40,153 nt of DNA from a phage. Shown here in pieces: positions 9,851 through 40,153 of this stretch. The stretch lies in the sequence record OZ335957.1; one strand, written 5' to 3'. The notes beneath the pieces were generated by a model that searched no databases, was not told the origin of the DNA, and was given only the letters and a program-made list of their open reading frames with translations. The translations under genes were made by a program, and so were the position numbers. Every line of letters begins with the position of its first letter. Within the stretch, counting starts at the first letter, position 1.

Positions 9851-10111
9851 ATGTCTAAGAACTTAATGTTCAACCGCTATACCAATACATTCCACCTGTC
9901 CAACAACCCGTTCGCTTACATTAAGCGCAACGAGAAGCTGGGCTACTTCGGGAAGGCTGTTAAGTTATCACCTACAGTATTCGCTCTGATTACTCCGGGA
10001 AAAGCTGAAGAGGCTCGCCAAAAGCGTGAGACCAACGTACCTGTGGTCTACACTAAATGGCCTCGCGTTCGTCTGTTTGTTGAGTTCGTGAAGGAGGTGA
10101 TCAATGGTTAA
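9851..10111 (+). CDS. Hypothetical protein (86 aa), gene 1.6 position
   Basis: RBS AAGGAG; position and size only. Confidence 0.55.
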   Translation: MSKNLMFNRYTNTFHLSNNPFAYIKRNEKLGYFGKAVKLSPTVFALITPGKAEEARQKRETNVPVVYTKWPRVRLFVEFVKEVING

Positions 10112-10544
10112 GGTGGGGGATACAGTTGAATATGTTGGACCAGTTGAAGCCTACACGGGACGCTCCTGTGGCAAGGTGATAGTGGTTAAGAATGAGCATG
10201 TAGCTGTTGTTAAGTGGCCCGGTTTATCTGAACCACTCAGTCACTCCATTAGCTCCTTAAGTATTACCAATCAGGCTCAGTCCGAGCCGACAACCATAGA
10301 TCAGGGAGATAGCGTCCGTAAGCCGTCGTACTATCAGGTCTTTGACGGTGTGGAATCCATTGAGATTATCGCCAGGTCCATGACTGTCAGTGAGTTCCGT
10401 GGTTTCTGCATGGGTAACGTCCTGAAGTATCGACTCCGAGCTGGTAAGAAGTCCGAGCTGGCGACTATGGAGAAGGACATGGCGAAAGCTGAGTTCTATG
10501 GTGAACTTTACGAGAAACATAAGGACAAGTGTTATGACGCGTGA
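10104..10544 (+). CDS. Hypothetical protein (146 aa), gene 1.7 position; possibly DUF3310-type
   Basis: Position; C-terminal SYYQVF..IEII..MTVSEFRGFCMGNVLKYRLRAGKK pattern is tentatively recalled as DUF3310-like. Confidence 0.55.
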   Translation: MVKVGDTVEYVGPVEAYTGRSCGKVIVVKNEHVAVVKWPGLSEPLSHSISSLSITNQAQSEPTTIDQGDSVRKPSYYQVFDGVESIEIIARSMTVSEFRGFCMGNVLKYRLRAGKKSELATMEKDMAKAEFYGELYEKHKDKCYDA

Positions 10545-12210: not shown

Positions 12211-12665
12211 TGACTACCTGTAAAGACCTTGAAGTTGGAACACGTTACAGATTCTCAAAGAACACCCTGTTGAATAACCCCAGCTTCACTGATGCTGTTT
12301 TCGAAAAGCGAGAAGACCATAGCGTAATTGTGGAGAAGGGGTGGCATCCTGAGGATTATATCGGTGAGACTACCAGCTGGAATGGTCACGAGACCTACAG
12401 TGTAGAAGTTGTTGACCAGCCTCAAGTCCTGCCAGCTTCGAGCGTACCTCCTGTGACTGTGAAGCGTGAAGTCCTGACAATCGACAAGATTGGTGTAGGC
12501 CAGACGTTCATCGTCCATGGAAAGCCTGAAGAAGTTTACGTGAAGATTAGCAACTCACACGTCTTCAACCATAAGCGTCTCCAGATGCACACCACGGACG
12601 CACAACGCTTCACCCAGCACCTGAATCTAGTGGTCGTAGAATTGGTGGTGTACAATGGTAAGTAA
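12207..12665 (+). CDS. Hypothetical protein (152 aa) inserted between endonuclease I and lysozyme genes
   Basis: ORF coupled to both neighbours (overlapping start/stop); no T7 counterpart at this position; no motif recognised. Confidence 0.6.
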   Translation: MMTTCKDLEVGTRYRFSKNTLLNNPSFTDAVFEKREDHSVIVEKGWHPEDYIGETTSWNGHETYSVEVVDQPQVLPASSVPPVTVKREVLTIDKIGVGQTFIVHGKPEEVYVKISNSHVFNHKRLQMHTTDAQRFTQHLNLVVVELVVYNGK

Positions 12666-13421: not shown

Positions 13422-13601
13422 ATGGTTACAGTTATTCTAGTTCTAACGCTTATCAGTGGTAGTGGGCAAACTATCAGCCAAGTACCTATAACAGCACCAA
13501 CATTACAGGACGCATTCACAATATGTGACCAGTCCGGCTCAAAGTGGGCCGACAAGTTTGGCGATGTCTCAAACGTTGCAGCAGGGTATGAGTGTATTTA
13601 A
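13422..13601 (+). CDS. Hypothetical small protein (59 aa) with signal-peptide-like N-terminus
   Basis: RBS TAAGGAGTGACC identical to that of the primase gene; MVTVILVLTLISGSG hydrophobic N-terminus. Confidence 0.4.
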   Translation: MVTVILVLTLISGSGQTISQVPITAPTLQDAFTICDQSGSKWADKFGDVSNVAAGYECI

Positions 13602-13608
13602 GGAGTGA

Positions 13609-15312
<1,704 letters not shown>

Positions 15313-15355
15313 TCGGGACATCGCTGACTATAAGAATTTTTACGGAGGACCGTTA

Positions 15356-15520
15356 GTGTTAAAGAAACTTAAAGCTCGATATCACATGTTCATGTACAAA
15401 TGGTGGAGCGATGAAGCAACCTGCCTGTCGAACATTCTGGGAGACCAGCGGTTCAACTCTGAGGCATGGAAGAAAGCTAACCGGAAGTTCATGTATCACT
15501 TCTTGCGTACAGACTTCTAG
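15356..15520 (+). CDS. Hypothetical small protein (54 aa, GTG start)
   Basis: GGAGG 7 nt upstream of GTG; 3' part of ORF-track frame 15041..15520 lying downstream of primase stop. Confidence 0.3.
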   Translation: MLKKLKARYHMFMYKWWSDEATCLSNILGDQRFNSEAWKKANRKFMYHFLRTDF

Positions 15521-15523
15521 GTC

Positions 15524-15566
15524 TAGACTCAAGGTCATTCATAGCGAGTGGCCTTTATGATTAGAC
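15524..15566 (+). promoter_or_regulatory. Conserved hairpin element, copy 2 (RNase III site-like, R4.7 position)
   Basis: TAGACTCAAGGTCATTCATAGCGAGTGGCCTTTATGATTAGACT. Confidence 0.4.
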
Positions 15567-15584: not shown

Positions 15585-17756
15585 ATGTTTGACCTTAAGA
15601 GTATCTGGGGTTCTGACATCGAGACCAACGGTCTCCTTGATACAGTCTCCCAGTTTCACTGTGGGGTCCTGATTAACGCCGAGTCGAATGAGACCCTTAA
15701 GTATGGGGTAGCTCCGATGGTCGGTATCGTCGGCGGCTTCAAAGAGTATGTTCATAAAGTGGAAGAGATTGCAGCATCACCTGATGGTATGCTGGTATTC
15801 CATAACGGTATCAACTATGACGTCCCGGCTATAGACAAGCTGAAGCGTTTGTACTTTGGGAAACGCTTTAACTTCCCGAAACATAAGATGATTGATACCT
15901 TGGTGCTGGGACGCTTGATGTATCCAAACATTAAGTTCTCAGACATGGGCGCAGTGAAAGCTGGTCGTCTGCCACCTAAGATGATGGGACGCCAGTCTCT
16001 TGAGGCTTGGGGCTATCGTCTCGGTGAGATGAAAGGTGAGTACAAACACGATTACGTTGCCAAGTGCAAGGCTGAAGGTATCGAATATAAGGCTGGGGAC
16101 GAATGGTTGTTCCCGTCTCAGGAGATGCTGGACTATAACGTTCAAGACGTTGTGGTCACACTGGCGTTGTTCAAGAAGTTCCTGACTGACAAGTATTACT
16201 TCCAGTCTGAACAGTTCGCTTTCGACCAGATTTATGCGTTGCGTCTGGAACATGATGCTGCGTGGACCTGTGCGAAGATGGAGCGTAACGGCTATCCGAT
16301 GAACACCGAGATGGTCGAAGGCTTATATCGTGAACTCACTGTCAAACGTGCAGAGTTGCTGGACAAGCTGCGTTCGACTTTCGGTAGCTGGTACGCACCA
16401 AAGGGAGGCAAGGAGTTCTTCAGGCATCCACGGACAGGTAAGGACCTTCCGAAGTATCCGAGGGTCGTGTATCCTAAGGTCGGTGGCATCTTTAAGAAGC
16501 CGAAGAACAAAGCTCAACGCTTAGGTCTTGAACCTTGTGAACGCGATACGCGAGACACGATGGAAGGAGCACCATTCACGCCAATCACTTACGTTGAGTT
16601 TAATCCGGGAAGCGGAGACCACTTAGCGAAAGTCCTGATGGAGCGTGGCTGGGAGCCTGTTGACTTCACTGACACCGGGAAACCTGTAGTCGATGACGAG
16701 ACGTTGGAACACGTTAAGTTACCAGACGCAGAGGCTCAGGCTTGTGTAGAGCTGGTCCGTGAGTATCTGGTAGTCCAGAAGCGCATCGGGCAGGCTGCTG
16801 AAGGTAAGAACGCATGGTTGAAACTTGTAGGTCCAGACGGACGTATGCACGGTTCAATCAACCCTTGTGGAGCAGTAACCGGACGTGCGACCCATAGTTC
16901 ACCAAACATGGCTCAGGTCCCGGCTAACGGTGCTCCATACGGTGAGACTTGCCGTGGTGCTTTCGGTGCAGCGTGGAACAAGAAGGACGGTAAGCCAGAC
17001 CCTTGGATTCAAGTAGGTGTGGACGCTTCAGGTCTTGAGCTTCGTTGTCTGGGGAACCGAGCGGCTCCGTTTGATGGTGGAGACTATGCGAAGACTGTGG
17101 TCGAAGGGGACATCCACTGGGCCAACGCAGTAAACGCTGGGTTAGCACCTAACGTCCCACGCGATAAGTCGAACCATGACCATGATGCTTTCCGTAACAA
17201 CGCTAAGACGTTCATCTATGCGTTCCTGTATGGTGCAGGGGCCGCTAAGATTGGACTGATAGTTGGCGGTGGTAAGAAGGAAGGTGCTACCCTGATGAAG
17301 AAATTCATTGAGGGTACACCAGCTATTAAAGACCTCAGGGAAGCTGTGAGTAATACGTTAATCTCCGAATCCAAATGGGTAGATGGAGAGAACATCGTGA
17401 AGTGGAAACGTCGCTGGCTGAAAGGTCTGGATGGTCGCCGTATCCACATCCGGTCTCCACACTCAGCACTAAACGCATTACTTCAAGGCGATGGTGCGGT
17501 TGTCTGTAAGCACTGGATTGTAGAGACTGAACGTATGCTTGAAGAGGCAGGGTATGTTCACGGCTGGGAGGGAGACTTCGCGTACATGGCCTGGGTTCAC
17601 GACGAATTGCAGATTGCGTGCCGTACTCAGGAGATTGCCGAAGAAGTCGTCAAGATTGCTCAACTTGCTATGCGTAAGGTGGGTGAGTTCTATAACTTTA
17701 AATGTGTCCTTGATACCGAAGGTAAGATTGGACCAACGTGGAAGGAGTGCCATTGA
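15585..17756 (+). CDS. 5: DNA polymerase (T7 gp5-like, family A) with 3'-5' exonuclease domain
   Basis: 723 aa; SDIETNGL (exo I), FHNG.NYDVPA, GSWY.PKGG, KTFIYAFLYGAG (motif B), WVHDELQ (motif C) collinear with T7 gp5. Confidence 0.98.
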   Translation: MFDLKSIWGSDIETNGLLDTVSQFHCGVLINAESNETLKYGVAPMVGIVGGFKEYVHKVEEIAASPDGMLVFHNGINYDVPAIDKLKRLYFGKRFNFPKHKMIDTLVLGRLMYPNIKFSDMGAVKAGRLPPKMMGRQSLEAWGYRLGEMKGEYKHDYVAKCKAEGIEYKAGDEWLFPSQEMLDYNVQDVVVTLALFKKFLTDKYYFQSEQFAFDQIYALRLEHDAAWTCAKMERNGYPMNTEMVEGLYRELTVKRAELLDKLRSTFGSWYAPKGGKEFFRHPRTGKDLPKYPRVVYPKVGGIFKKPKNKAQRLGLEPCERDTRDTMEGAPFTPITYVEFNPGSGDHLAKVLMERGWEPVDFTDTGKPVVDDETLEHVKLPDAEAQACVELVREYLVVQKRIGQAAEGKNAWLKLVGPDGRMHGSINPCGAVTGRATHSSPNMAQVPANGAPYGETCRGAFGAAWNKKDGKPDPWIQVGVDASGLELRCLGNRAAPFDGGDYAKTVVEGDIHWANAVNAGLAPNVPRDKSNHDHDAFRNNAKTFIYAFLYGAGAAKIGLIVGGGKKEGATLMKKFIEGTPAIKDLREAVSNTLISESKWVDGENIVKWKRRWLKGLDGRRIHIRSPHSALNALLQGDGAVVCKHWIVETERMLEEAGYVHGWEGDFAYMAWVHDELQIACRTQEIAEEVVKIAQLAMRKVGEFYNFKCVLDTEGKIGPTWKECH

Positions 17757-18207: not shown

Positions 18208-18413
18208 GTGAATACTTACGGGTCCTAGCGGCCCTTAAGTCCTGCCCGAAGACCTTCCAGTCCAACTATGTGCGCAACAACGCTGCACTGGTGGCTGAGG
18301 CTGCGAGTCGTGGACATCTAAGCTGCCTGTCTATGGATGGGCGTAACAACGGTGCGTGGGAGATTACCGCTGCTGGCACCAAGTTCCTGAACCAACATGG
18401 AGGCTGTCTATGA
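18204..18413 (+). CDS. 5.7: gp5.7-like protein
   Basis: KSCPKTFQSNYVRNNAALVAEAASRGHLSCL...GAWEITAAGTKFL nearly identical in pattern to T7 gp5.7. Confidence 0.85.
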   Translation: MSEYLRVLAALKSCPKTFQSNYVRNNAALVAEAASRGHLSCLSMDGRNNGAWEITAAGTKFLNQHGGCL

Positions 18414-18865
18414 AGATACCTGAAAGTCTGAAAGAGCTGGTCCTTGACATAGGTGAGTGTGAGTGCGAGAAGGAGCACCGCAAGTACGCTGAGTTCTACG
18501 CATCTTGGTCATACACCTTGACAGAGAATGACGTTGAGTCATATACCGAGTCTCCCGCTGAGGCCTATGAGTGGCGTCAGTTCATCGGGCTGACCATCGT
18601 AGCCAGTGGTATGTGGAATGACAGCTACGGTTCAGAGGTAAATGACTGGGGAGTATATCGCCAGGTTGAGAAGGAGACTGAGATGTCTTCAAACTTCTGG
18701 AACCTGATGTCCCACCTCAACTCAGATGACAACGACATGGCACATGAGTTCGCCAACAAATGGCTGAAGCCTGAGGTGACTCTGGAACGTATTGAGGAGC
18801 CTAAAGTTCCCTTGATGCCATATGCAGTCGCTATGGCTACAGGAGGTCTGGACGATGGGTGCTGA
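18410..18865 (+). CDS. Hypothetical acidic protein (151 aa) in the gene 5.9 position
   Basis: Internal ATG of ORF-track frame 18356 that overlaps gp5.7 stop; CECEKEH motif; Glu/Asp-rich; T7 gp5.9 is only about 52 aa. Confidence 0.6.
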   Translation: MKIPESLKELVLDIGECECEKEHRKYAEFYASWSYTLTENDVESYTESPAEAYEWRQFIGLTIVASGMWNDSYGSEVNDWGVYRQVEKETEMSSNFWNLMSHLNSDDNDMAHEFANKWLKPEVTLERIEEPKVPLMPYAVAMATGGLDDGC

Positions 18866-23814: not shown

Positions 23815-24864
23815 ATGGCAAACGTTCCGGGTCAGAAAGTTGGTACAGACCAAGGTAAAGGCAAATCTGGTTCCGACGCTCTGGCGTTGTTCCTGAAGGT
23901 CTTTGCTGGTGAAGTCCTGACTGCATTCACTCGCCGCTCTGTAACCGCTGACAAGCATATTGTCCGTACCATTCAGAACGGTAAGTCTGCTCAGTTCCCG
24001 GTCATGGGTCGCACCTCTGGTGTGTATCTGGCTCCGGGTGAGCGACTGTCCGATAAGCGTAAAGGTATCAAACATACCGAGAAAGTGATTACCATTGATG
24101 GTCTGCTGACTGCCGATGTGATGATTTTCGACATTGAAGACGCGATGAACCACTATGACGTGGCTGGCGAGTACTCCAACCAGTTGGGCGAAGCTCTGGC
24201 TATCGCTGCCGATGGTGCGGTACTGGCTGAGATGGCTATTCTGTGTAACCTACCGGCTGCATCTGATGAAAACATCGCTGGTCTTGGCAAAGCGTCTGTG
24301 CTGGAAGTTGGTACTAAAGCCGACCTGAACACTCCGGCTAAGCTGGGTGAAGCAATCATCGGTCAACTGACCATTGCTCGTGCGAAGCTGACATCCAACT
24401 ACGTTCCTGCTGGCGACCGTTACTTCTACACCACGCCGGACAACTACTCTGCAATCCTCGCGGCTCTGATGCCGAACGCTGCTAACTATGCTGCGCTGAT
24501 TGACCCAGAGACTGGTAACATCCGTAACGTAATGGGCTTCGTGGTTGTTGAAGTTCCACACTTGACTCAGGGTGGTGCTGGGGAAACTCGTGGTGACGAT
24601 GGTATCACTATTGCGACTGGTCAGAAGCATGCCTTCCCAGCTACTGCTACTGGTGATGTTAAAGTTGCTCTGGACAACGTTGTGGGCCTGTTCTCTCACC
24701 GTTCTGCTGTAGGTACTGTTAAGCTGCGTGACTTGGCGCTGGAACGTGACCGTGACGTCGATGCTCAGGGCGACCTGATTGTTGGTAAGTACGCTATGGG
24801 TCACGGAGGTCTGCGTCCAGAAGCGGCAGGAGCACTGGTTTTCACAGCGGCGTCAGCGGGTTAA
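23815..24864 (+). CDS. 10A: Major capsid protein (T7 gp10A-like)
   Basis: 349 aa; KLALFLKVF.GEVLTAF, KSAQFPV.GRT, HTEKVITIDGLLTADV, AALMPNAANYAALIDPE, HRSAVGTVKLRDLALER, YAMGHGGLRPEAAG match T7 gp10A. Confidence 0.98.
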   Translation: MANVPGQKVGTDQGKGKSGSDALALFLKVFAGEVLTAFTRRSVTADKHIVRTIQNGKSAQFPVMGRTSGVYLAPGERLSDKRKGIKHTEKVITIDGLLTADVMIFDIEDAMNHYDVAGEYSNQLGEALAIAADGAVLAEMAILCNLPAASDENIAGLGKASVLEVGTKADLNTPAKLGEAIIGQLTIARAKLTSNYVPAGDRYFYTTPDNYSAILAALMPNAANYAALIDPETGNIRNVMGFVVVEVPHLTQGGAGETRGDDGITIATGQKHAFPATATGDVKVALDNVVGLFSHRSAVGTVKLRDLALERDRDVDAQGDLIVGKYAMGHGGLRPEAAGALVFTAASAG

Positions 24865-25127
24865 CGACCTTTAAGGCCCTCTCTACAGAGGGTCCTACCT
24901 TAGAGACGTATAGTTCTACGGTGGGGACCAGCTTGAAGGTTGACTTCCAGGAGCTTTCAGATGTGACCGATTGGTCGCTTCTTGAGGTGACTACGCCTGA
25001 TGGTGTTAGCTACTCCCGTAGAACCAACAGTCTCTACTTCAAGGCCACCTCTGGCGTGGAAGGTCTGGTGATTGTTGGGTATGACGGTTCGCCTGTGCGT
25101 TCCTTCAACGTATCTTTCACAAACTAA
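24837..25127 (+). other. 10B: Programmed -1 ribosomal frameshift site (G GTT TTC) and 94-codon extension giving a minor capsid protein (gp10B-like)
   Basis: Heptamer G GTT TTC in the 10A frame 7 codons before its stop; -1 frame open from 24843 to TAA at 25125-25127; 8-bp hairpin at 24875-24894. Confidence 0.6.
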
Positions 25128-25291: not shown

Positions 25292-25858
25292 ATGCCTCAA
25301 TACATTCCACTGAATGCTAACGATGACTTAGACGCCATCAACGATATGTTAGCTGCTATCGGTGAACCAGCAGTCCTACAGCTTGACGAAGGTAACGCTG
25401 ACGTCTCGAACGCTCAACGTATCCTGCATCGTGTTAATCGTCAGGTCCAAGCTAAAGGCTGGAACTTTAACATCAACGAAGCTGCTGTCCTGACGCCTGA
25501 TGTCCAAGACAACAGGATTCGATTCCTGCAGTCTTACCTTCGGGTCATGACTGCTGGTGCTACCAGTTACTACAGCAACATGGGGGGCTATCTCTATGAC
25601 CTGTCCACTCAGTCCACGACCTTCACTGGACCAATTACAGTCGAACTGGTGGAGATGAAACCGTTCGCTGAGATGCCTGTAGTATTCCGTGACTACATCG
25701 TTACCAAGGCTAGCCGTGAGTTCAACGCTAAGTTCTTCGGTAGCCCAGAGTCTGAACTGTACCTTCGTGAGCAGGAAGCAGAACTCTACCAGCAGGTGAT
25801 GGAGTACGAGATGGACACTGGTCGCTACAACATGATGTCCGACATCGGGAGGGACTAA
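25292..25858 (+). CDS. 11: Tail tubular protein A (T7 gp11-like)
   Basis: 188 aa; position and size match gp11; RBS AAGGAG. Confidence 0.9.
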   Translation: MPQYIPLNANDDLDAINDMLAAIGEPAVLQLDEGNADVSNAQRILHRVNRQVQAKGWNFNINEAAVLTPDVQDNRIRFLQSYLRVMTAGATSYYSNMGGYLYDLSTQSTTFTGPITVELVEMKPFAEMPVVFRDYIVTKASREFNAKFFGSPESELYLREQEAELYQQVMEYEMDTGRYNMMSDIGRD

Positions 25859-26085
25859 TGGCTAGTCACAACCTGAAGATTCACCGCCAGCACTTTGGTC
25901 CGGTACAACTAGGTCTAAAGACAGCAGAGCTGAGACTTAACGACCGGGACTTTAAGGTTGGCGACTGGCTTATCCTGAATGAGTGGGACAACGGGTATAC
26001 TGGACAACAGGTAGCACGTAAGGTTGTCCACATTGCTGACGTTGGTGACATCGCTGAGGGATACGTCCTAATGAGTATGATTTAA
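25858..26085 (+). CDS. Hypothetical small protein (75 aa) between tail tube genes; ASCH/DUF3850-like fold suspected
   Basis: TAATG coupling to gp11; KTAELRLNDRDFKVGDWLILNEWD resembles DUF3850/ASCH-type motifs (from memory); T7 has no gene here. Confidence 0.6.
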   Translation: MASHNLKIHRQHFGPVQLGLKTAELRLNDRDFKVGDWLILNEWDNGYTGQQVARKVVHIADVGDIAEGYVLMSMI

Positions 26086-31869: not shown

Positions 31870-34800
31870 ATGGCGACTCGTGGTATTCGCAATAACAATC
31901 CGGGTAACATCCGGGTAAGTAAGGACAAATGGGAAGGAATGACTGGAGATGATGGCGCATTCGTCACCTTCGATAGTCCAGAGTCTGGCGTCCGAGCTTT
32001 AGGTAAAAACCTGCTGTCCTACGGTCGCCAAGGTTATGACTCCATCGAGAAGATTATAAACCGATGGGCACCTCCTAACGAGAACGACACTAAGGCTTAT
32101 ATCGACTCAGTGGTGGCTGCAACTGGTATTCCAGCTACCCAGAGTCTCGACCTATCGGACCCTGACACCCTGTCTTCTCTTGCTCAAGCTATCAGCTTCC
32201 ATGAGACAGGCTCCCGGTACGACCCTGAAGTCTATCAGAAGGGAGTCGCACGAGCACTCAATGGCATTAGCCCAAAGACTCCACCAGTAAGCGCTAACGT
32301 ATTTGACGCACTCACGGAAGGACTCAAGGCTAAACCTAAAGTAGCTCTGGGCGAGAACCTTCCGACCGCTGCTGGTCTAAACATTGAGGGTCAAGCACCT
32401 GAAGCTCCCAACGAATCGTTCGGTGAGATGTTCTATAAGTCTACTGGCGAGACCATGCAGGAACGAGAGGATCGCTCTACGTGGTTCGGTTTCGGCTCGG
32501 CTACAGAAGCTGAAGTGAAGAACTCTATGGTCGGCGTGGCTATCCGCGCTGGTCAGACCGAGGACTCACTTGATGTCATTGGCGATGTGTTCAACCCTAC
32601 CCGCTGGAACAACCATAAGTGGACTCGTGAAGAGCTTGACCAGATTCGTAACGCTGGGGTTCTGCCTCAGTATTACGGAGTAATTACTGGCGGTTCTCCT
32701 CAGAATCTGACAGAGCTGATCAACTTGGCGTTGGAGAACCAGAAGTTGGACCAAGAGAAGGCCAAGGCTGGGACTGGTGCTAAGTTAGCTGCTGGTGTGA
32801 TTGGCGCTGGTGTGGATCCTCTGACCTACGTTCCTATAGCTGGACAGATTGGTAAGGGTGGCAAGCTGGTCAACAAGATGTTCACCGTGGCTGCTCAATC
32901 TGGAGCACTTGCTGGTGTATCAGAGATGTCCCGTACCTCAGTGGCTGGTGGTGATGCTCATGTGGCTGAGGCTATCCTTGGCGGTGCTCTCTTCGGCGGA
33001 GGTATGACTGCTATCGCTGATGGTTTAGGCAGAGCCTTAGGTCGCAACACTAATGAGTTCGCTGGCCCAGCTACACGTCTGGAAGCTCGTGAGACCGCTC
33101 GTAACATTGATGGTCAGGACCTGTCTCGTCTCCCTATTCAGGAAGGTGAGCAGACCTTTAGTCATCAAGGCGTTAAGTTCGCCGACGTTCCGAATGAGCC
33201 TGGTAGTGTGCGGCTGGAGGATGGTTCAATCCTGATTGGTGAGAACCCTCTGAACCCTAAGACACGTAAGGTCTTTGACGAAGTGATTGAGCCTGAACGG
33301 GCCGCTGCTGGTGTGAACCTTGGTGGTCTGACTGAGATTGGCCTGAAGCTGCTTCGGTCTGAGAACCCTGAGATTCGTGGAGTAGCTGCTGACTTAGTGC
33401 GTTCACCGACTGGTATGCAGTCTGGGGCCTCAGGTAAAATCGGGACCACTGCGTCTGACGTATTCGAGAGACTTCGTGCTGTGGACCATCGGTTCTACAA
33501 TGACATCGACGATGCGGTTACTGAGGCCCTAAAGGACCCGTACTTCCAGACAGCATTCTGGCGAGACTCTGGAGCATTCCGTCAGGACATCTACCAGCGT
33601 GTGTCTATGGCTATCGAAGATGGTAGCGGAAACCTGAAGGCTGAACTGACTCCGGGAGAACTGAAAGTCTATGACCTGCTGAAGAACCAGTTTGACGCCA
33701 AGCGTGAGATGATGGAGAACCCGGCTATGTTTGGTCGTCCAGACGCTCAGTCTATCTTTCCGGGCAGCCGCTTCAAGGGAACCTACGTCCCGCATGTGTA
33801 TAGCAACCAGATGAAGGAGCTGTACATCAAGGAGCTTGGGAGTCCAGAGGCACTACAGGAGGCCATCAAGAAGTCATGGTTGACCAGCTATGCGTCTCGA
33901 CCTGAGGTCAAGAAACGTGTGGACGAGGCACTCTTAGAGGCTGACCCTACGTTGACTCCAGAAGGACTTGCGGCTGCGGTCGATAAGTACGCCAACGATA
34001 AGGCTTATGGTATCTCTCACACCGAGCAGTTCGAGCGTTCATCCGTAATGGAAGAGAACATCAATGGTCTGGTGGGTCTGGAGAACAACAGCTTCCTTGA
34101 GGCTCGTAACCTGTTCGATAGCGATATGTCAATCGTCCTACCTAACGGTCAGACCTTCAGTGTCAACAACCTGCGTGAGTGGGACATGGACAAGATTGTC
34201 CCGGCCTACAACCGTCGAGTTAATGGCGATATTGCTATCATGGCTGGTACAGGCAAGACCACGAAGGACATGAAGGACTTGGTTGAGACCATGATGAACA
34301 AGGCTGGGGATGACGGTAAGTTGAAAGGTGAAGTATCTACCTTACGTGACACCTTGAAGATTCTAACTGGTCGTGCTCGACGTGATGGTGCTGATGATGC
34401 AGCCTTCGCTACCGTGATGCGCACAATGACAGACCTATCGTTCTTCGCTAAGAATGCCTACATGGGTGTTCAGAACTTAACGGAGATTGGTGGAATGCTG
34501 GCTCGTGGCAACGTTCGTGCAATGCTGCATGGAGTCCCAATTTTCCGTGACCTAGCCTTCCGTAACAAGAAGGTTGGGGCCTCAGAGATTAAGGACCTGC
34601 ACAATGTTATCTTCGGTAAGGAACTGGATGACTCAATCCGTCCGTCTAAACAGGATGTCATTGACCGTCTGCGATCTTACAGTGACCTCGGTCGTGGTAC
34701 AGCTACAGCTCTGGGGACTGCCAAGTATTACACTGGCGAACTTGCAGTACGCTCTCCGTTCACTAAAGTCCTCAACGGTACGACCAACTACCTGTTAGAT

Positions 34801-35757
34801 GCTGGACGTCAAGGCTTCCTGTCTGACATCGTGGAGCATAGCCTGACTGGTAGTAAGCGTAAGTTCGATGACCGCTGGCTTAAGACCGCTGGTATCTCTG
34901 ACGAGCAGTGGAAGGGCATTAAGTCCCTCATCCGTGAGTCAGTGACGCGTGGTCCAGACGGGAAGTACACCATCAAGGATAAGAAGGCGTTCAGTCAGGA
35001 CCCAAGGGCTATGGACCTCTGGCGTATGGGTGACACCATCGCTGATGAGACACTGCTCCGTCCCCACAAGCTGAGCAACATGGACGCCAAGGCTTATGGT
35101 CCTCTCGCTAAGACTGTCCTTCAGTTTAAGAACTTCGTTATCAAGTCTATCAACGGTCGAACCATGCGTACCTTCTACAACGCCACCAAGAACAACCGAG
35201 CTATTGATGCTGCACTGTCCACGGTTATGTCTATGGGTCTGGCTGGGATGTACTACATGGCTCAGGCGCACATCAAGGCTTACGCTATGCAGGACGGTCG
35301 TGACCGTGAGTACCTGAAGCAAGCCCTGAACCCGACGATGATTGGCTATGCGGCCCTGTCCCGTAGTTCACATCTAGGTGGACCACTTGGGGTCGCTAAC
35401 ATTCTTGGTGGTATCGCTGGGTATGAGGACACTAAGATGCTCCGTTCGTCTATCCTCCCGCGTTCACCTACAGAGAAGCCCGAACGTGCCATCTCATATG
35501 GTGCGGCTACAAGTGACCCTGTGATGAATGTCGTTGGTAACTTCTTGGAGCAGGTCCCGGCTTTCGGCTATGCTGCTAACGTTGGCGCTTCGGCATACAA
35601 CTTGGCTGGCTACCTCAAGGCTGATACCCGTGTCAACGAGCGAGACTACATGACCGGGATGTATAACACGTTCCGTGAACTTGTACCGAATGACCCGATT
35701 ACCCAGAAGTTGCTGCTTGGGACGTTTGAGGAGCAAGGCATCCACATCAAGGACTAA
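31870..35757 (+). CDS. 16: Internal virion protein D (T7 gp16-like) with divergent N-terminal domain
   Basis: 1295 aa; body collinear with T7 gp16 (PTRWN, VDPLTYVP, RLEARETARN, DLVRSPTGMQSGASGK, VPNDP.TQ); N-terminal 190 aa lack the T7 transglycosylase signature. Confidence 0.93.
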   Translation: MATRGIRNNNPGNIRVSKDKWEGMTGDDGAFVTFDSPESGVRALGKNLLSYGRQGYDSIEKIINRWAPPNENDTKAYIDSVVAATGIPATQSLDLSDPDTLSSLAQAISFHETGSRYDPEVYQKGVARALNGISPKTPPVSANVFDALTEGLKAKPKVALGENLPTAAGLNIEGQAPEAPNESFGEMFYKSTGETMQEREDRSTWFGFGSATEAEVKNSMVGVAIRAGQTEDSLDVIGDVFNPTRWNNHKWTREELDQIRNAGVLPQYYGVITGGSPQNLTELINLALENQKLDQEKAKAGTGAKLAAGVIGAGVDPLTYVPIAGQIGKGGKLVNKMFTVAAQSGALAGVSEMSRTSVAGGDAHVAEAILGGALFGGGMTAIADGLGRALGRNTNEFAGPATRLEARETARNIDGQDLSRLPIQEGEQTFSHQGVKFADVPNEPGSVRLEDGSILIGENPLNPKTRKVFDEVIEPERAAAGVNLGGLTEIGLKLLRSENPEIRGVAADLVRSPTGMQSGASGKIGTTASDVFERLRAVDHRFYNDIDDAVTEALKDPYFQTAFWRDSGAFRQDIYQRVSMAIEDGSGNLKAELTPGELKVYDLLKNQFDAKREMMENPAMFGRPDAQSIFPGSRFKGTYVPHVYSNQMKELYIKELGSPEALQEAIKKSWLTSYASRPEVKKRVDEALLEADPTLTPEGLAAAVDKYANDKAYGISHTEQFERSSVMEENINGLVGLENNSFLEARNLFDSDMSIVLPNGQTFSVNNLREWDMDKIVPAYNRRVNGDIAIMAGTGKTTKDMKDLVETMMNKAGDDGKLKGEVSTLRDTLKILTGRARRDGADDAAFATVMRTMTDLSFFAKNAYMGVQNLTEIGGMLARGNVRAMLHGVPIFRDLAFRNKKVGASEIKDLHNVIFGKELDDSIRPSKQDVIDRLRSYSDLGRGTATALGTAKYYTGELAVRSPFTKVLNGTTNYLLDAGRQGFLSDIVEHSLTGSKRKFDDRWLKTAGISDEQWKGIKSLIRESVTRGPDGKYTIKDKKAFSQDPRAMDLWRMGDTIADETLLRPHKLSNMDAKAYGPLAKTVLQFKNFVIKSINGRTMRTFYNATKNNRAIDAALSTVMSMGLAGMYYMAQAHIKAYAMQDGRDREYLKQALNPTMIGYAALSRSSHLGGPLGVANILGGIAGYEDTKMLRSSILPRSPTEKPERAISYGAATSDPVMNVVGNFLEQVPAFGYAANVGASAYNLAGYLKADTRVNERDYMTGMYNTFRELVPNDPITQKLLLGTFEEQGIHIKD

Positions 35758-35775
35758 ACTATCACTATAGGAAAC
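35753..35775 (+). promoter_or_regulatory. Phage RNAP promoter (phi17-like), +1 G at 35770
   Basis: ACTAAACTATCACTATA GGAAAC; overlaps gp16 stop codon. Confidence 0.8.
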
Positions 35776-35822
35776 GGGAGGCGCTACCATAGGTCTCCCT
35801 TTAATTCATAACAGGAGGCATA

Positions 35823-38800
35823 ATGTCCACGATTACACAATTCCCTTCAGGAAACACTCAGTACAGGATTGAGTTCGACTACCTAGCCAGAACGTTTGTT
35901 GTTGTTACGCTGGTGAATAACTCTAACCCTACCCTGAACCGTGTACTGGAAGTTGGTCGAGATTATCGATTCCTTAATCCAACGATGATTGAGATGTTGG
36001 TTGACCAATCAGGTTTCGACATCGTTCGCATTCACCGTCAGACTGGAACTGACTTAGTGGTAGACTTCAGGAATGGCTCAGTGTTGACGGCTAGTGACCT
36101 GACAAATTCAGAGCTTCAGGCTATCCATATTGCAGAAGAAGGTCGAGACCAAACGGTTGACTTAGCGAAGGAATATGCCGATGCTGCTGGTAGCTCTGCT
36201 GGCAACGCTAAGGATAGCGAGGACGAAGCACGCCGAATCGCTGAGAGTATCAGGGAAGCTGGTCTAATTGGCTATATGACCCGTCGCTCCTTCGAGAAAG
36301 GCTACAACGTTACAACATGGAGCGAGGTCCTGCTATGGGAAGAGGATGGTGATTATTACCGCTGGGATGGTACGCTTCCAAAGAACGTTCCTGCTGGTTC
36401 AACTCCTGAAACTTCCGGTGGGATTGGATTAGGTGCGTGGGTTAGTGTTGGTGATGCTGCTTTAAGAAGTCAGATTTCAAACCCGGAAGGGGCAATACTC
36501 TACCCTGAATTACATAGAGCACGCTGGCTTGATGAAAATGATGTTCGTGGTTGGGGTGCTAAAGGGGATGGTGTCACTGATGATACAGCAGCGTTAACGA
36601 GCGCATTAAACGACATACCGGTTGGACAAAAGATTAATGGCAATGGGAAGACATATAAGGTCACATCCCTGCCTGACATTAGTCGCTTCATCAACACTCG
36701 TTTCGTTTATGAGCGCATTCCCGGACAACCTCTTTATTATGCCTCTGAAGAATTTGTTCAGGGTGAGTTGTTCAAAATAACGGACACCCCTTATTACAAT
36801 GCGTGGCCTCAGGATAAAGCGTTCGTATATGATAATGTGATATATGCACCTTACATGGGTAGCGATCGTCATGGTGTTAGTCGTCTGCATGTGTCATGGG
36901 TTAAGTCTGGTGATGATGGTCAAACATGGTCTACTCCAGAGTGGCTAACTGATCTGCATCCAGATTACCCTACAGTGAACTATCACTGTATGAGTATGGG
37001 TGTATGTCGCAACCGTCTGTTTGCCATGATTGAAACACGTACTTTAGCCAATAACGCATTAACCAATTGTGCATTGTGGGATCGCCCCATGTCTCGTAGC
37101 CTGCATCTTACTGGTGGTATCACTAAAGCTGCAAATCAGCGATATGCAACAATACATGTACCAGACCACGGACTATTCGTGGGTGATTTTGTTAACTTCT
37201 CTAATTCTGCGGTAACAGGTGTATCCGGTGATATGACTGTTGCAACCGTAATAGATAAGGACAACTTCACGGTTCTTACACCCAACCAGCAGACTTCAGA
37301 TTTGAATAACGCTGGAAAGAATTGGCACATGGGTACTTCTTTCCATAAGTCTCCATGGCGTAAGACAGACCTTGGTCTAATCCCTCGTGTCACAGAGGTG
37401 CATAGCTTTGCTACTATTGATAACAATGGCTTTGTTATGGGCTATCATCAAGGCGATGTAGCTCCACGCGAAGTTGGGCTTTTCTACTTCCCTGATGCTT
37501 TCAATAGCCCATCTAGTTATGTTCGTCGTCAGATACCATCTGAGTATGAACCAGATGCGTCAGAGCCGTGCATCAAGTACTATGACGGTGTATTATACCT
37601 TATCACTCGTGGCACTCGTGGGGATAGACTAGGTAGCTCTTTGCATCGTAGTAGAGACATAGGTCAGACTTGGGAGTCACTGAGATTTCCACATAATGTT
37701 CATCATACTACATTACCTTTTGCTAAAGTAGGGGATGACCTTATTATGTTTGGTTCAGAACGTGCAGAAAATGAATGGGAAGCAGGTGCACCAGATGATA
37801 GGTACAAGGCATCTTATCCTCGCACCTTCTATGCACGCTTGAATGTAAACAATTGGAATGCAGATGATATTGAATGGGTTAACATCACTGACCAGATTTA
37901 TCAGGGCGGAATAGTTAACTCAGGTGTAGGTGTTGGTTCGGTAGTTGTGAAGGATAATTACATCTACTACATGTTTGGTGGAGAGGACCATTTTAACCCA
38001 TGGACATATGGAGATAACTCAGCGAGGGACCCATTCAAATCAGATGGTCATCCCTCAGATTTGTATTGCTACAAAATGAAGATTGGCCCAAGCAATCATG
38101 TTTCCCGTGATTTCAGGTATGGTGCTGTACCTAACAGAGCTGTTCCCGTGTTTTTTGATACGAATGGGATTCGCACTGTTCCTGCGCCAATGGAATTTAC
38201 AGGGGATTTGGGTTTAGGTCATGTGACCATTAGAGCCAGCACCAGTAGTAACATTCGCTCTGAAGTTTTAATGGAAGGTGAATATGGGTTTATCGGGAAA
38301 TCTATACCGACTGATAACCCGGCAGGGCAGCGCACCATATTTTGCGGGGGTGAAGGCACCAGTTCAACGACTGGCGCACAGATTACGCTTCATGGTGCAA
38401 ATAGCACCGACTCAAGGCGAATAGTTTACAATGGTGATGAGCATCTGTTCCAGACTGCTGACGTTAAGCCTTATCACGATAACGTCACTGCGCTTGGTGG
38501 ACCACGTAACCGTTTCACAACTGCATATCTCGGAAGCAACCCTATTGTTACTTCTAATGGGGAGAGGAAAACAGAGCCGGTAGTTTTTGATGATGCTTTC
38601 CTAGATGCCTGGGATGACGTTCACTACATCATGTATCAATGGTTAGACGCTGTTCAACTGAAAGGCAATGATGCTCGTATTCACTTCGGGGTTATTGCTC
38701 AGCAAATTCGTGATGTATTCATTGCACACGGTCTGATGGATGAAAACAGTACGAATTGTCGTTATGCAGTTCTGTGCTATGACAAGTATCCACGGATGAC

Positions 38801-39017
38801 TGATACGGTATTTTCGCACTATGAAATCATTGAACACACTGACGAGGAGGGTAATGTCACTACTACGGAAGAGCCTGTATTCACTGAGGTGGTTATCCAT
38901 GAAGAGGGTGAGGAGTGGGGTGTTCGGCCTGACGGAATTTTCTTTGCTGAAGCCGCTTATCAGAGAAGAAAACTGAAAAGAATCGAAGCCAGACTTTCTG
39001 CTCTTGAACAGAAGTAA
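35823..39017 (+). CDS. 17: Tailspike endosialidase (endo-N-acetylneuraminidase) with T7 gp17-like N-terminal adaptor and C-terminal intramolecular chaperone domain
   Basis: 1064 aa; N-terminus FDYLARTFVVVTL like T7 gp17; Asp boxes SGDDGQTW (36906-36929) and SRDIGQTW (37650-37673); C-terminal 153 aa after Ser911 with S74-type chaperone motifs. Confidence 0.93.
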   Translation: MSTITQFPSGNTQYRIEFDYLARTFVVVTLVNNSNPTLNRVLEVGRDYRFLNPTMIEMLVDQSGFDIVRIHRQTGTDLVVDFRNGSVLTASDLTNSELQAIHIAEEGRDQTVDLAKEYADAAGSSAGNAKDSEDEARRIAESIREAGLIGYMTRRSFEKGYNVTTWSEVLLWEEDGDYYRWDGTLPKNVPAGSTPETSGGIGLGAWVSVGDAALRSQISNPEGAILYPELHRARWLDENDVRGWGAKGDGVTDDTAALTSALNDIPVGQKINGNGKTYKVTSLPDISRFINTRFVYERIPGQPLYYASEEFVQGELFKITDTPYYNAWPQDKAFVYDNVIYAPYMGSDRHGVSRLHVSWVKSGDDGQTWSTPEWLTDLHPDYPTVNYHCMSMGVCRNRLFAMIETRTLANNALTNCALWDRPMSRSLHLTGGITKAANQRYATIHVPDHGLFVGDFVNFSNSAVTGVSGDMTVATVIDKDNFTVLTPNQQTSDLNNAGKNWHMGTSFHKSPWRKTDLGLIPRVTEVHSFATIDNNGFVMGYHQGDVAPREVGLFYFPDAFNSPSSYVRRQIPSEYEPDASEPCIKYYDGVLYLITRGTRGDRLGSSLHRSRDIGQTWESLRFPHNVHHTTLPFAKVGDDLIMFGSERAENEWEAGAPDDRYKASYPRTFYARLNVNNWNADDIEWVNITDQIYQGGIVNSGVGVGSVVVKDNYIYYMFGGEDHFNPWTYGDNSARDPFKSDGHPSDLYCYKMKIGPSNHVSRDFRYGAVPNRAVPVFFDTNGIRTVPAPMEFTGDLGLGHVTIRASTSSNIRSEVLMEGEYGFIGKSIPTDNPAGQRTIFCGGEGTSSTTGAQITLHGANSTDSRRIVYNGDEHLFQTADVKPYHDNVTALGGPRNRFTTAYLGSNPIVTSNGERKTEPVVFDDAFLDAWDDVHYIMYQWLDAVQLKGNDARIHFGVIAQQIRDVFIAHGLMDENSTNCRYAVLCYDKYPRMTDTVFSHYEIIEHTDEEGNVTTTEEPVFTEVVIHEEGEEWGVRPDGIFFAEAAYQRRKLKRIEARLSALEQK

Positions 39018-39151
39018 TAAACAAAAACCTTTTGCCATTAAGTTGGTGGGGTAGATGTTAGAAGGTTGTGGAGGTAGAGGCTAACTACACGCTAAACAAC
39101 ATAGGGTAACAACTTTGGGTCACGGACGACCCGCTTTAAACTGGAGGTTTT

Positions 39152-39346
39152 ATGATTGAGTTAGACTTCAAGAATGAGGTCCTTAAAGCCTCTCCTATAG
39201 TCGGGACCGCTGCGGCTGATGGTGCCAGTCGGTTCTTCTTCGGACTCACACTTAACGAATGGTTCTACGTTGCAGCTATCGCGTACACCGTTGTCCAGAT
39301 TGGTGTGCTAGTCTACAAAACGATTAAAGGAGGTGGTAAAACATGA
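39152..39346 (+). CDS. 17.5: Holin (T7 gp17.5-like)
   Basis: 64 aa; LNEWFYVAAIAYTVVQIG transmembrane segment nearly identical to T7 gp17.5. Confidence 0.85.
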   Translation: MIELDFKNEVLKASPIVGTAAADGASRFFFGLTLNEWFYVAAIAYTVVQIGVLVYKTIKGGGKT

Positions 39347-39606
39347 CGCAGATGGACTTAGAGAAGTTCCTCTTGATGCTAGATACTGAACGTGCTCGAC
39401 TCATGCTGCAAGACCTGCGGGATGACACTAAGCGTTCACCTCAGCTTTACAACGCCATTGAGAAGCTACTGGCTCGTCACAACTTCGTGCTAAGCAAGGT
39501 GTCTGTAGACGAGAAGACTCTGGCTGATATGGAGGCCCTGAACGCAGAGTACGATAAGGTTCTTTCAGCGACTGAGGATAATGACACAGGGTATGGTGTT
39601 CAATAA
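39343..39606 (+). CDS. 18: Terminase small subunit (T7 gp18-like)
   Basis: 87 aa; LLMLDTERARLMLQDL...RSPQLYNAIEKLLARH matches T7 gp18. Confidence 0.88.
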   Translation: MTQMDLEKFLLMLDTERARLMLQDLRDDTKRSPQLYNAIEKLLARHNFVLSKVSVDEKTLADMEALNAEYDKVLSATEDNDTGYGVQ

Positions 39607-39707: not shown

Positions 39708-40153
39708 ATGCTCGAATTTTTAAAGAGAGCGGCTCCGTGGTTACTTGCAGCAGTGATGTTTGCTGGTGGCTACCACACCGCTAACAATAAGTGGGAGGCT
39801 AAGGTCAATGAAGAATACACCTCGAATCTTAAGGCATCGGAAGATACAAGGCTTGCTGTCCAAGCTGAAGTCAACAAAGTGTCCAAACGGTTTCAGGACG
39901 AAATGTCCTCGCTGGAAGGCAGCACTGATAGGATTATTGCTGACCTTCAGTCTGACAATAAGCGGCTGCGCATCCGAGTCAAACCAACGAGTGGAACCAC
40001 GCAAAGTGACGGTCGATGCGTCATTGATGGTTACGCCGAACTTGACGAACGAGATGCTAAACGTCTTATCGCCATCGGAGTGAAAGGAGACAAGTGGATT
40101 AAGGCCCTTCAGGACACTGTGAGAGCCTTGCAGCAAGATAAGGAGGTGACGCA
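39708..40153 (+). CDS. 18.5: i-spanin (Rz-like, T7 gp18.5-like), 3' end truncated by window edge
   Basis: MLEFLKRAAPWLLAAVMFAGG N-terminal TM; EGSTDRIIADLQSDNKRLRIRVK and DERDAKRLIA match T7 gp18.5; GGGAGGG RBS. Confidence 0.85.
   Translation, partial: MLEFLKRAAPWLLAAVMFAGGYHTANNKWEAKVNEEYTSNLKASEDTRLAVQAEVNKVSKRFQDEMSSLEGSTDRIIADLQSDNKRLRIRVKPTSGTTQSDGRCVIDGYAELDERDAKRLIAIGVKGDKWIKALQDTVRALQQDKEVT
39808..40083 (+). CDS. 18.7: o-spanin (Rz1-like lipoprotein, T7 gp18.7-like) nested in +1 frame inside i-spanin gene
   Basis: Lipobox LTISGC; PRWKAALIGLLL and SLMVTPNLTNEMLNV match T7 gp18.7; GGGAGG RBS. Confidence 0.8.
   Translation: MKNTPRILRHRKIQGLLSKLKSTKCPNGFRTKCPRWKAALIGLLLTFSLTISGCASESNQRVEPRKVTVDASLMVTPNLTNEMLNVLSPSE

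Follow-up and report, generated by a model that had tools for sequence, protein, structure and literature searches.

Tailspike Gene and Genomic Setting

What kind of tailspike does a phage encode at its gene 17 locus, and which host does that protein imply? The window analyzed here is a stretch of phage DNA of 40,153 nucleotides (OZ335957.1), and its gene 17 is a confirmed ATG-start open reading frame of 1064 codons and a stop at positions 35823–39017 of the plus strand, on which the features of the gene described below also lie. The initial annotation had read the product as an endosialidase with a self-cleaving C-terminal chaperone and had concluded that the host carries a K1 capsule. The analysis presented here leads, with high confidence, to the same reading, in which gene 17 encodes the endosialidase tailspike precursor of a K1F-like Kayfunavirus, the protein would work through the K1 capsule, and a K1 strain of Escherichia coli is the most likely host.

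Genome searches aligned the window at 95–97% DNA identity with K1F-like Kayfunavirus genomes over nearly its whole length, and gene 17 itself has 97.5% DNA identity with its K1F counterpart. The gene order is also K1F-like, with gene 16, a promoter, gene 17, the 17.5 holin and gene 18 following one another. Judged by this identity and synteny, the source of gene 17 is a K1F-like Kayfunavirus.

The promoter in front of the gene (35753–35775, ACTAAACTATCACTATAGGAAAC) is of the type read by the K1F phage RNA polymerase, differs from the K1F consensus at one position and overlaps the stop codon of gene 16. It has an annotated counterpart at the same site in phage ASO2B and a positional equivalent in promoter phi17 of T7, and it is one of nine K1F-type promoters in the window, where none is expected by chance. 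The ribosome-binding site AGGAGG (35813–35818), read directly 4 nt ahead of the ATG, stands at the same site as the annotated one of phage Pipis. In a scan of positions 35600–39400, the counts of sigma-70 promoters and intrinsic terminators did not exceed the shuffle expectation, and therefore no host-type regulatory signal is claimed beside the phage-type promoter; the 134-nt spacer 3' of gene 17 yielded no intrinsic terminator in the same scan. Antisense open reading frames within gene 17 (for example 38643–39038, 131 aa) were dismissed as mechanical by-products because the sense gene is conserved from end to end, with a dN/dS of 0.165.

N-Terminal Particle-Binding Region

The tailspike was compared with Pfam profiles, and the matches to four endosialidase domains, Peptidase_S74, Phage_T7_tail and Tail_spike_N all exceeded the curated cut-offs. 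At the N-terminus lies a tail-attachment domain like that of T7 gp17 (aa 6–115, 35838–36167), which was delimited by Pfam PF03906 (Phage_T7_tail, aa 10–115, E 1e-15) and by BLASTP, with 40% identity to T7 gp17 over aa 6–113 (E 3e-20). The PDB entry 7boz, T7 gp17 in the tail, matches the same end of the protein. The initial annotation had assigned the first 150 residues to this domain; the homology stands, but not over that length, as it ceases to be detectable near aa 115. The rest of the protein had been described as unrelated to the T7 fibre, and indeed aa 151–1064 have no similarity to T7 gp17, with a best E-value of 0.42.

The particle-binding region extends to aa 245. PDB entry 9vvr is almost identical over aa 1–245 and carries a different C-terminal enzyme. 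Within this region, a Tail_spike_N module of the TSP1/Gp66 type (aa 156–211, 36288–36455; Pfam PF18668, E 4.1e-19), which matches the CBA120 tailspike structures 4oj5 and 5w6h, had been overlooked in the first reading.

Catalytic Propeller and Beta-Barrel

The enzyme begins where the particle-binding region ends. An endosialidase N-terminal extension (aa 246–312, 36558–36758; Pfam PF12218, End_N_terminal, E 2.7e-37) is followed by a six-bladed catalytic beta-propeller of family GH58 (aa 313–754, 36759–38084; Pfam PF12217, End_beta_propel, E 1.6e-221). Nested in the propeller is the beta-barrel domain for polysialic acid binding (aa 424–506, 37092–37340; Pfam PF12195, End_beta_barrel, E 6e-48), which has no substitution relative to K1F. 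The crystal structures 1v0e and 3gvl of K1F endoNF, whose constructs begin at aa 245/246, align without gaps over aa 245–910, further near-identical matches were obtained with the endoNF structures 3gvj and 3gvk, and in total aa 245–1064 are covered by solved structures at about 98% identity.

Two Asp boxes had been noticed from the sequence, and exactly two were found, SGDDGQTW at aa 362–369 (36906–36929) and SRDIGQTW at aa 610–617 (37650–37673). With all six frames of the window searched, the pattern S.D.G.[TS][WFY] occurs nowhere else, and at least two matches occurred in just 1 of 20,000 shuffles of the tailspike protein. The published count for the K1F endosialidase is also two, in blades 1 and 4 (PMC2716378). 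The catalytic and substrate-coordinating residues H350, R549, E581, R596 and R647, whose roles in the propeller have been described (PMC12632334), are all kept at the same positions, as are Q330, K585, N699, R866, D994, R897, S911 and K916, for which functions have likewise been published (PMC12632334, PMC8326128). The sole exception among the published catalytic and cleavage residues is K410, which is replaced by Asn.

The assignment as an endosialidase, which had been made from the letters alone, is thus borne out by all four endosialidase Pfam domains, by the endoNF structures and by the identity of gene 17. Comparison with the K1F endosialidase, one of the checks that had been proposed, gave 97.46% protein identity at equal length, and the profile search proposed beside it returned both the sialidase (PF12217) and the S74 domain (PF13884). 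We infer that the protein is a bacteriophage endosialidase (GH58) and that it would cleave polysialic acid as does the characterized enzyme to which it is 97.5% identical.

Stalk and Predicted Self-Cleaving Chaperone

The fourth endosialidase domain is a triple-beta-helix and beta-prism stalk (aa 757–910, 38091–38552; Pfam PF12219, End_tail_spike, E 4.5e-78). Its residues R812, Y821, R837, S848, Q853, R866 and R897 are kept, of which R837, S848 and Q853 have roles in endoNF connected with the polysialic acid site of the stalk. The stalk roles of R812 and Y821 have been described (PMC12632334).

Behind the stalk lies the autocleavage center (38553–38570), which reaches from the codon of Ser911 (38553–38555) to that of Lys916 (38568–38570). 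According to the mat_peptide boundary 910/911 of K1F, the scissile bond is Thr910|Ser911, in the local sequence NPIVT|SNGERK. Earlier work has described the Ser911-Lys916 dyad and has shown that Arg897 assists in cleavage (PMC8326128). The initial annotation had compared the length of 1064 aa and the Ser at residue 911 with K1F endoNF, and K1F gp17 is also 1064 aa long and residue 911 of the window protein is Ser.

The C-terminal intramolecular chaperone domain (Peptidase_S74, aa 911–1064, 38553–39014) matches Pfam PF13884 at aa 916–971 (E 6e-9, 36.5 bits, with the cut-off at 22), and the C-terminal motifs quoted in the first reading, at aa 928–948 and 952–966, fall within this match. PDB 3gw6, the stalk and chaperone of endoNF, aligns with aa 790–1064 (E 1.4e-179), and the chaperone domain of the GA-1 neck appendage, 3gud, matches with an E-value of 4.4e-13. 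The domain had therefore been recognized correctly, but its size had been given as 153 aa and is 154 aa by the boundaries of the K1F record, where gp17* is annotated as aa 2–910 and gp17-CTD as aa 911–1064.

Allelic Variation and the K410N Substitution

The protein differs from that of K1F by 27 substitutions, among them K410N and N565S, at a dN/dS of 0.165. The closest alleles, from the Kayfunavirus phages vB_EcoP_FFK3, PR_Kaz2018, Mt1B1_P3 and ASO2B, are 98.0–98.4% identical at the protein level (Mt1B1_P3 98.0%). These tailspikes have most of the differences from K1F in common with gene 17 of the window and carry K at position 410, and none is identical to it. Six substitutions (S33N, Y857H, N861S, G931D, N1000Y and E1052K) are absent from the 15 other alleles compared. 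The exact protein was not found in a collection of 15 billion proteins and is therefore a new allele, which leaves its classification unaffected.

PMC12632334 cites a report that K410 is essential in vitro, and it could be asked whether K410N leaves a catalytically impaired spike that binds polysialic acid without cleaving it. This is scarcely credible. In the deep mutational scan of K1F, K410 was dispensable during infection, and phage with K410A had no defect in plating or growth (PMC12632334). K410N itself is present in this allele and in those of three other phages, making 4 among the 16 compared, all of them from plaque-forming phages; one of the three, phiYIO1-1, was isolated on DSM 30083. 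The remaining catalytic residues are intact, and the dN/dS of 0.165 speaks against loss of the enzyme. The natural occurrence of K410N agrees independently with the dispensability of K410 during infection, which is one modest point that the locus adds.

The second alternative keeps the enzyme and its polysialic acid specificity and supposes that K410N and the changes in the stalk have altered its processivity, the length of its products or its discrimination among K1 strains, for example by O-acetylation of the capsule or by O-antigen context. The stalk is the most substituted region, with 9 of the 27 changes and a dN above that of the three other regions compared, and a cluster of changes lies there, with I838T adjoining R837, Y857H, N861S, and S895R two residues ahead of R897. 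Of the 16 alleles, this one alone has Y857H and N861S, K410 had been proposed as a gateway residue, and the K1F scan calls the stalk a "tuning knob" and reports variants that discriminate among K1 strains (PMC12632334). However, the majority of the changes in the stalk are frequent polymorphisms that also occur in phages infecting ordinary K1 strains, the beta-barrel is identical to that of K1F, and the sites to which the scan attributes tuning or discrimination (R812, Y821, G730, N732, G742, S460, S468, G504, N386, E373 and Y387) are unchanged relative to K1F. A retuned enzyme is accordingly unlikely, though it is the most probable of the alternatives considered here; if it were real, the allele would be a natural example of the stalk behavior that the scan proposed.

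Proposed Mechanism and Host

If gene 17 encodes an ordinary K1F-like endosialidase tailspike, its mode of action can be outlined from experiments with near-identical proteins, on which the following steps rest. The phage RNA polymerase would transcribe gene 17 from the promoter at 35753–35775, and three chains of 1064 aa would assemble into a trimer. When the stalk has attained its proper fold, the Ser911/Lys916 dyad together with Arg897 would cut the bond Thr910|Ser911, releasing the chaperone of 154 aa and leaving a very stable mature spike. The T7 tail bears six tail fibres, and by analogy with T7, aa 1–245, which comprise the T7 gp17-like domain and the Tail_spike_N module, would anchor the trimer to the tail. 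The beta-barrel and the stalk would bind alpha-2,8-polysialic acid and the six-bladed propeller would cleave it, and this cleavage would enable the virion to tunnel through the capsule of E. coli K1 to the outer membrane.

Binding and cleavage of polysialic acid and tunnelling through the K1 capsule would make K1-encapsulated E. coli the most likely host. Relatives that carry the gene were isolated on strains that their records name as O18ac:K1:H7 and K1 LU_100, on Mt1B1, which is reported to be K1-positive, and on UTI89 and DSM 30083, both of which we presume to be K1 strains. Experiments on close relatives strongly support such a host for this phage too. K1F needs the polysialic acid gene cluster, to which resistance to K1F also maps (PMC9241782). 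Mt1B1_P3 loses its infectivity on a strain that lacks emrR, a gene regulating the formation of the K1 capsule, and that is capsule-free according to the authors (PMC12361893); the range of strains that this phage infects follows K1 status (bioRxiv 10.1101/2023.11.22.567924).

It is conceivable that the host is instead another bacterium with polysialic acid or a related capsule, such as E. coli K92 or a species other than E. coli, or that infection does not depend on a capsule. The records of near-identical genes include the host labels Klebsiella pneumoniae (IME207), Acinetobacter baumannii (vB_Aba_01KA) and K-12 MG1655 (LNA3), and for related phages the prediction of infection from K1 status reached just 73% precision and 72% recall (bioRxiv 10.1101/2023.11.22.567924). 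Yet these labels belong to an UNVERIFIED record, to a same-submitter twin of an E. coli phage (PV615262, PV615263) and to a phage of another genus, whereas the genome examined here has 95–97% identity with coliphages whose isolation hosts were K1 strains. Disruption of capsule synthesis, moreover, abolished infection by both K1F and Mt1B1_P3 (PMC9241782, PMC12361893). A host of this other kind, or independence of the capsule, is therefore very improbable, and a K1-encapsulated strain of E. coli is retained.

Relation to Known Systems

The closest characterized system is K1F gp17, endoNF (AM084414/DQ111067; 1v0e, 3gvl and 3gw6), which is equal in length, domain order and genomic position and has in common with the window protein the Asp boxes, Ser911/Lys916, R897 and the pair R866-D994; 27 substitutions separate the two. 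For K1F, the enzyme, its structure, the self-cleaving chaperone and the host dependence are already established, and public records contain many alleles that are near-identical. The scientific gain from this locus is thus small, since the K1F enzyme is already understood and only the allele is new. In practice, gene 17 would mark the phage as a coliphage that targets the K1 capsule, which is of relevance to phage therapy against E. coli of neonatal meningitis and urinary-tract infection and wherever endosialidases serve as reagents for polysialic acid.

The endosialidase of phi92 (4hiz) has the same catalytic architecture, with a match over aa 246–908 (E 3.3e-237), and that of the Shuimuvirus IME207 is 91% identical over aa 141–1064, chaperone domain included. 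In both, however, the N-terminal particle-binding modules differ and the phage backbones are unrelated; the endosialidase module has been exchanged horizontally between phages. With T7 gp17, the window protein shares the tail-attachment domain, the position after gene 16 and a phage promoter in front, but T7 gp17 is a fibre with a receptor-binding tip and has neither an enzyme nor a self-cleaving chaperone. The chaperone belongs to the same fold family as the Peptidase S74 domains of the GA-1 neck appendage (3gud), the T5 L-shaped tail fibre, the K5 lyase and MYRF, and self-cleavage by a Ser-Lys dyad after trimerization is common to these proteins, the eukaryotic MYRF included (PMC8326128).

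Domain Architecture of the Tailspike

Gene 17 (35823..39017, + strand) encodes a textbook K1F-type endosialidase tailspike that is already known. The ORF opens with an ATG, carries the ribosome-binding site AGGAGG 4 nt upstream and specifies 1064 aa with Ser at residue 911; the length and the serine are those of K1F endoNF, as the initial annotation noted. The observation and the endosialidase reading made there are right but for minor points, and the assignment is borne out by 97.46% protein identity to K1F gp17 and by Pfam and structure matches. In the Pfam profile search, every domain match was far over the curated cut-off: Phage_T7_tail (aa 10-115, E 1e-15), Tail_spike_N (PF18668; aa 156-211, E 4.1e-19), End_N_terminal (aa 246-312, E 2.7e-37), End_beta_propel (aa 313-754, E 1.6e-221), End_beta_barrel (aa 424-506, E 6e-48), End_tail_spike (aa 757-910, E 4.5e-78) and Peptidase_S74 (aa 916-971, E 6e-9); the sialidase beta-propeller and the S74 domain, both anticipated from sequence, are thus present. 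The K1F endoNF structures 1v0e, 3gvl, 3gvj and 3gvk align without gaps to aa 245-910, and the stalk-plus-chaperone structure 3gw6 aligns to aa 790-1064 (E 1.4e-179). The phi92 endosialidase structure 4hiz also matches (E 3.3e-237).

Two Asp boxes were found as described, SGDDGQTW at aa 362-369 and SRDIGQTW at aa 610-617. They are the only matches to the pattern S.D.G.[TS][WFY] in all six frames of the whole 40-kb window, and at least two such matches arose in 1 of 20,000 shuffles of the tailspike protein. At the C-terminus, Ser911 and Lys916 are present in the local sequence NPIVT/SNGERK, and the motifs quoted in the initial annotation lie at aa 928-966. The S74 chaperone proposed there is present, but the released domain counts 154 aa and not 153, because the K1F record sets gp17-CTD at aa 911-1064 (gp17*, aa 2-910).

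Sequence Variation Among Alleles

The DNA of gene 17 shares 97.5% identity with its K1F counterpart and as much as 98.6% with tailspike genes from other Kayfunavirus phages, and 31 phage records match at least 80% of its length. The tailspike and K1F gp17 are of equal length and differ at 27 positions, nine of them in the stalk and none in the beta-barrel. The dN/dS against K1F is 0.165, and gene 17 is therefore intact and under purifying selection. The residues H350, R549, E581, R596, R647, Q330, K585, N699, R866 and D994, described as critical in K1F (PMC12632334), are all kept, as are S911, K916 and R897 (PMC8326128). The sole literature-critical residue changed is K410 (K410N; codon at 37050-37052). 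K410 is reportedly essential in vitro, yet its substitutions were tolerated in a phage-based scan and K410A phage plated normally (PMC12632334). Asn410 occurs in 4 of 16 aligned alleles (the window, phiYIO1-1, Esher2 and LNA3), so that K410N is a natural polymorphism; it fits the recent K1F mutational scan and is mildly informative. The only other mildly informative point is that a few substitutions in the stalk and chaperone are unique to this allele. S33N, Y857H, N861S, G931D, N1000Y and E1052K are absent from the 15 other compared alleles, and the exact protein had no entry in a large protein collection; the sequence thus represents a new allele of an already known protein.

Modular Exchange of the Tailspike

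The initial annotation matched the N-terminal 150 aa to T7 gp17. The similarity is real (40% identity, E 3e-20) but extends only over aa 6-113, while the remainder is indeed unlike the T7 fibre (aa 151-1064, best E-value 0.42). The Tail_spike_N module, which follows the T7-like domain and precedes the enzyme, had not been mentioned. An 843-aa tailspike (PDB 9vvr) is nearly identical to aa 1-245 and divergent afterwards. Shuimuvirus IME207 is the converse, with the same enzyme and chaperone behind another, unrelated N-terminus (KX523699.2, 1242-4172; 91% protein identity over aa 141-1064, 94% DNA identity). It belongs to a different genus and its record host is Klebsiella pneumoniae; its endosialidase-chaperone module looks like a recent horizontal transfer. 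Because 9vvr shares only the N-terminus and IME207 only the enzyme and chaperone, the protein is a typical modular tailspike with exchange points on both sides of the enzyme module.

Proposed Mechanism and Host

From near-identity to the characterised protein, we infer the following mechanism. The Ser911/Lys916 dyad, assisted by Arg897 of the folded stalk, would cut between Thr910 and Ser911 and free the chaperone (PMC8326128). The mature trimer would be anchored to the tail through its N-terminal 245 aa. Polysialic acid would be bound by the beta-barrel and stalk and its alpha-2,8 linkages cut by the propeller (PMC12632334), which would allow the virion to pass through the K1 capsule.

Relatives carrying gene 17 provide supporting evidence for the K1-capsule host that had been suggested. 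Their records name two isolation strains as K1 (O18ac:K1:H7 and K1 LU_100). UTI89 and DSM 30083, the latter the isolation host of phiYIO1-1 with its Asn410 allele, are further isolation hosts and presumably K1 strains. Mt1B1, the host of another relative, was reported as K1-positive (PMC12361893). IS insertions in kpsE and neuC give rise to K1F resistance (PMC9241782). Mt1B1_P3, whose tailspike is 98.0% identical to the window's, had no effect on a strain lacking emrR, a K1 capsule regulator, where the authors consider the capsule absent (PMC12361893). The host range of Mt1B1_P3 follows K1 strains; for related phages, K1 status predicted infection with 73% precision and 72% recall (bioRxiv 10.1101/2023.11.22.567924). 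Other hosts stand in a few matching records, namely Acinetobacter baumannii, Klebsiella and, in an UNVERIFIED entry, K-12 MG1655; we regard such labels as unreliable or as coming from other phage backbones. In phage 1RS (vB_Eco_1RS, PV615263.1, 301-3539), the gene 17 homologue is frameshifted and annotated as three ORFs, and its near-twin PV615262.1, from the same submitters, is labelled an Acinetobacter baumannii phage despite an E. coli K1-type tailspike. Sequencing or labelling errors are likely.

Expression Signals and Genome Context

As in K1F, gene 17 is flanked by gene 16 (31870..35757, upstream) and holin gene 17.5 (39152..39346). A K1F-type phage promoter with one mismatch to the consensus (35753-35775, +) runs over the gene 16 stop codon, the position equivalent to that of phi17 in T7. 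With up to three mismatches, the K1F phage-RNA-polymerase promoter consensus has nine matches in the window versus 0 expected by chance, all nine on the coding (+) strand and 23 nt each, at 1859, 8137, 9804, 11003, 19851, 22690, 23689, 28477 and 35753. Scans for host-type promoters and terminators near gene 17 gave counts at chance level.

The window holds an entire K1F-like genome with 95-97% identity to PhiNW-B1, ASO2B, Mt1B1_P3 and K1F. In assembly it was collapsed to a circle and re-oriented so that it opens exactly on TTG, the start codon of gene 19 (terminase large subunit). The Rz-like gene 18.5 crosses the end/start junction (39709-40153 plus 1-8) and is therefore whole in no ORF list, and a single copy of the K1F terminal direct repeat (about 178 bp) lies at about 2532-2709. 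The DNA polymerase gene (15585-17756) is one uninterrupted 723-aa ORF, whereas the K1F annotation gives gene 5 as two joined pieces that enclose gp5.3. Bases 14932-15530 of K1F, which fall within gene 5, find no match in the window, and the phage therefore lacks the gene 5 intervening element. A segment unmatched in K1F, located between tail genes 11 and 12, carries a 75-aa DUF3850/ASCH-domain ORF (25858-26085). Further segments without a K1F counterpart are 18356-18865, 10103-10367, 12214-12422, 13425-13597 and 24858-25121; among the unmatched segments is a 169-aa ORF between genes 5.7 and 6 with no Pfam match, and the DUF3310 protein (10104-10544) differs from that of K1F in its N-terminal half.
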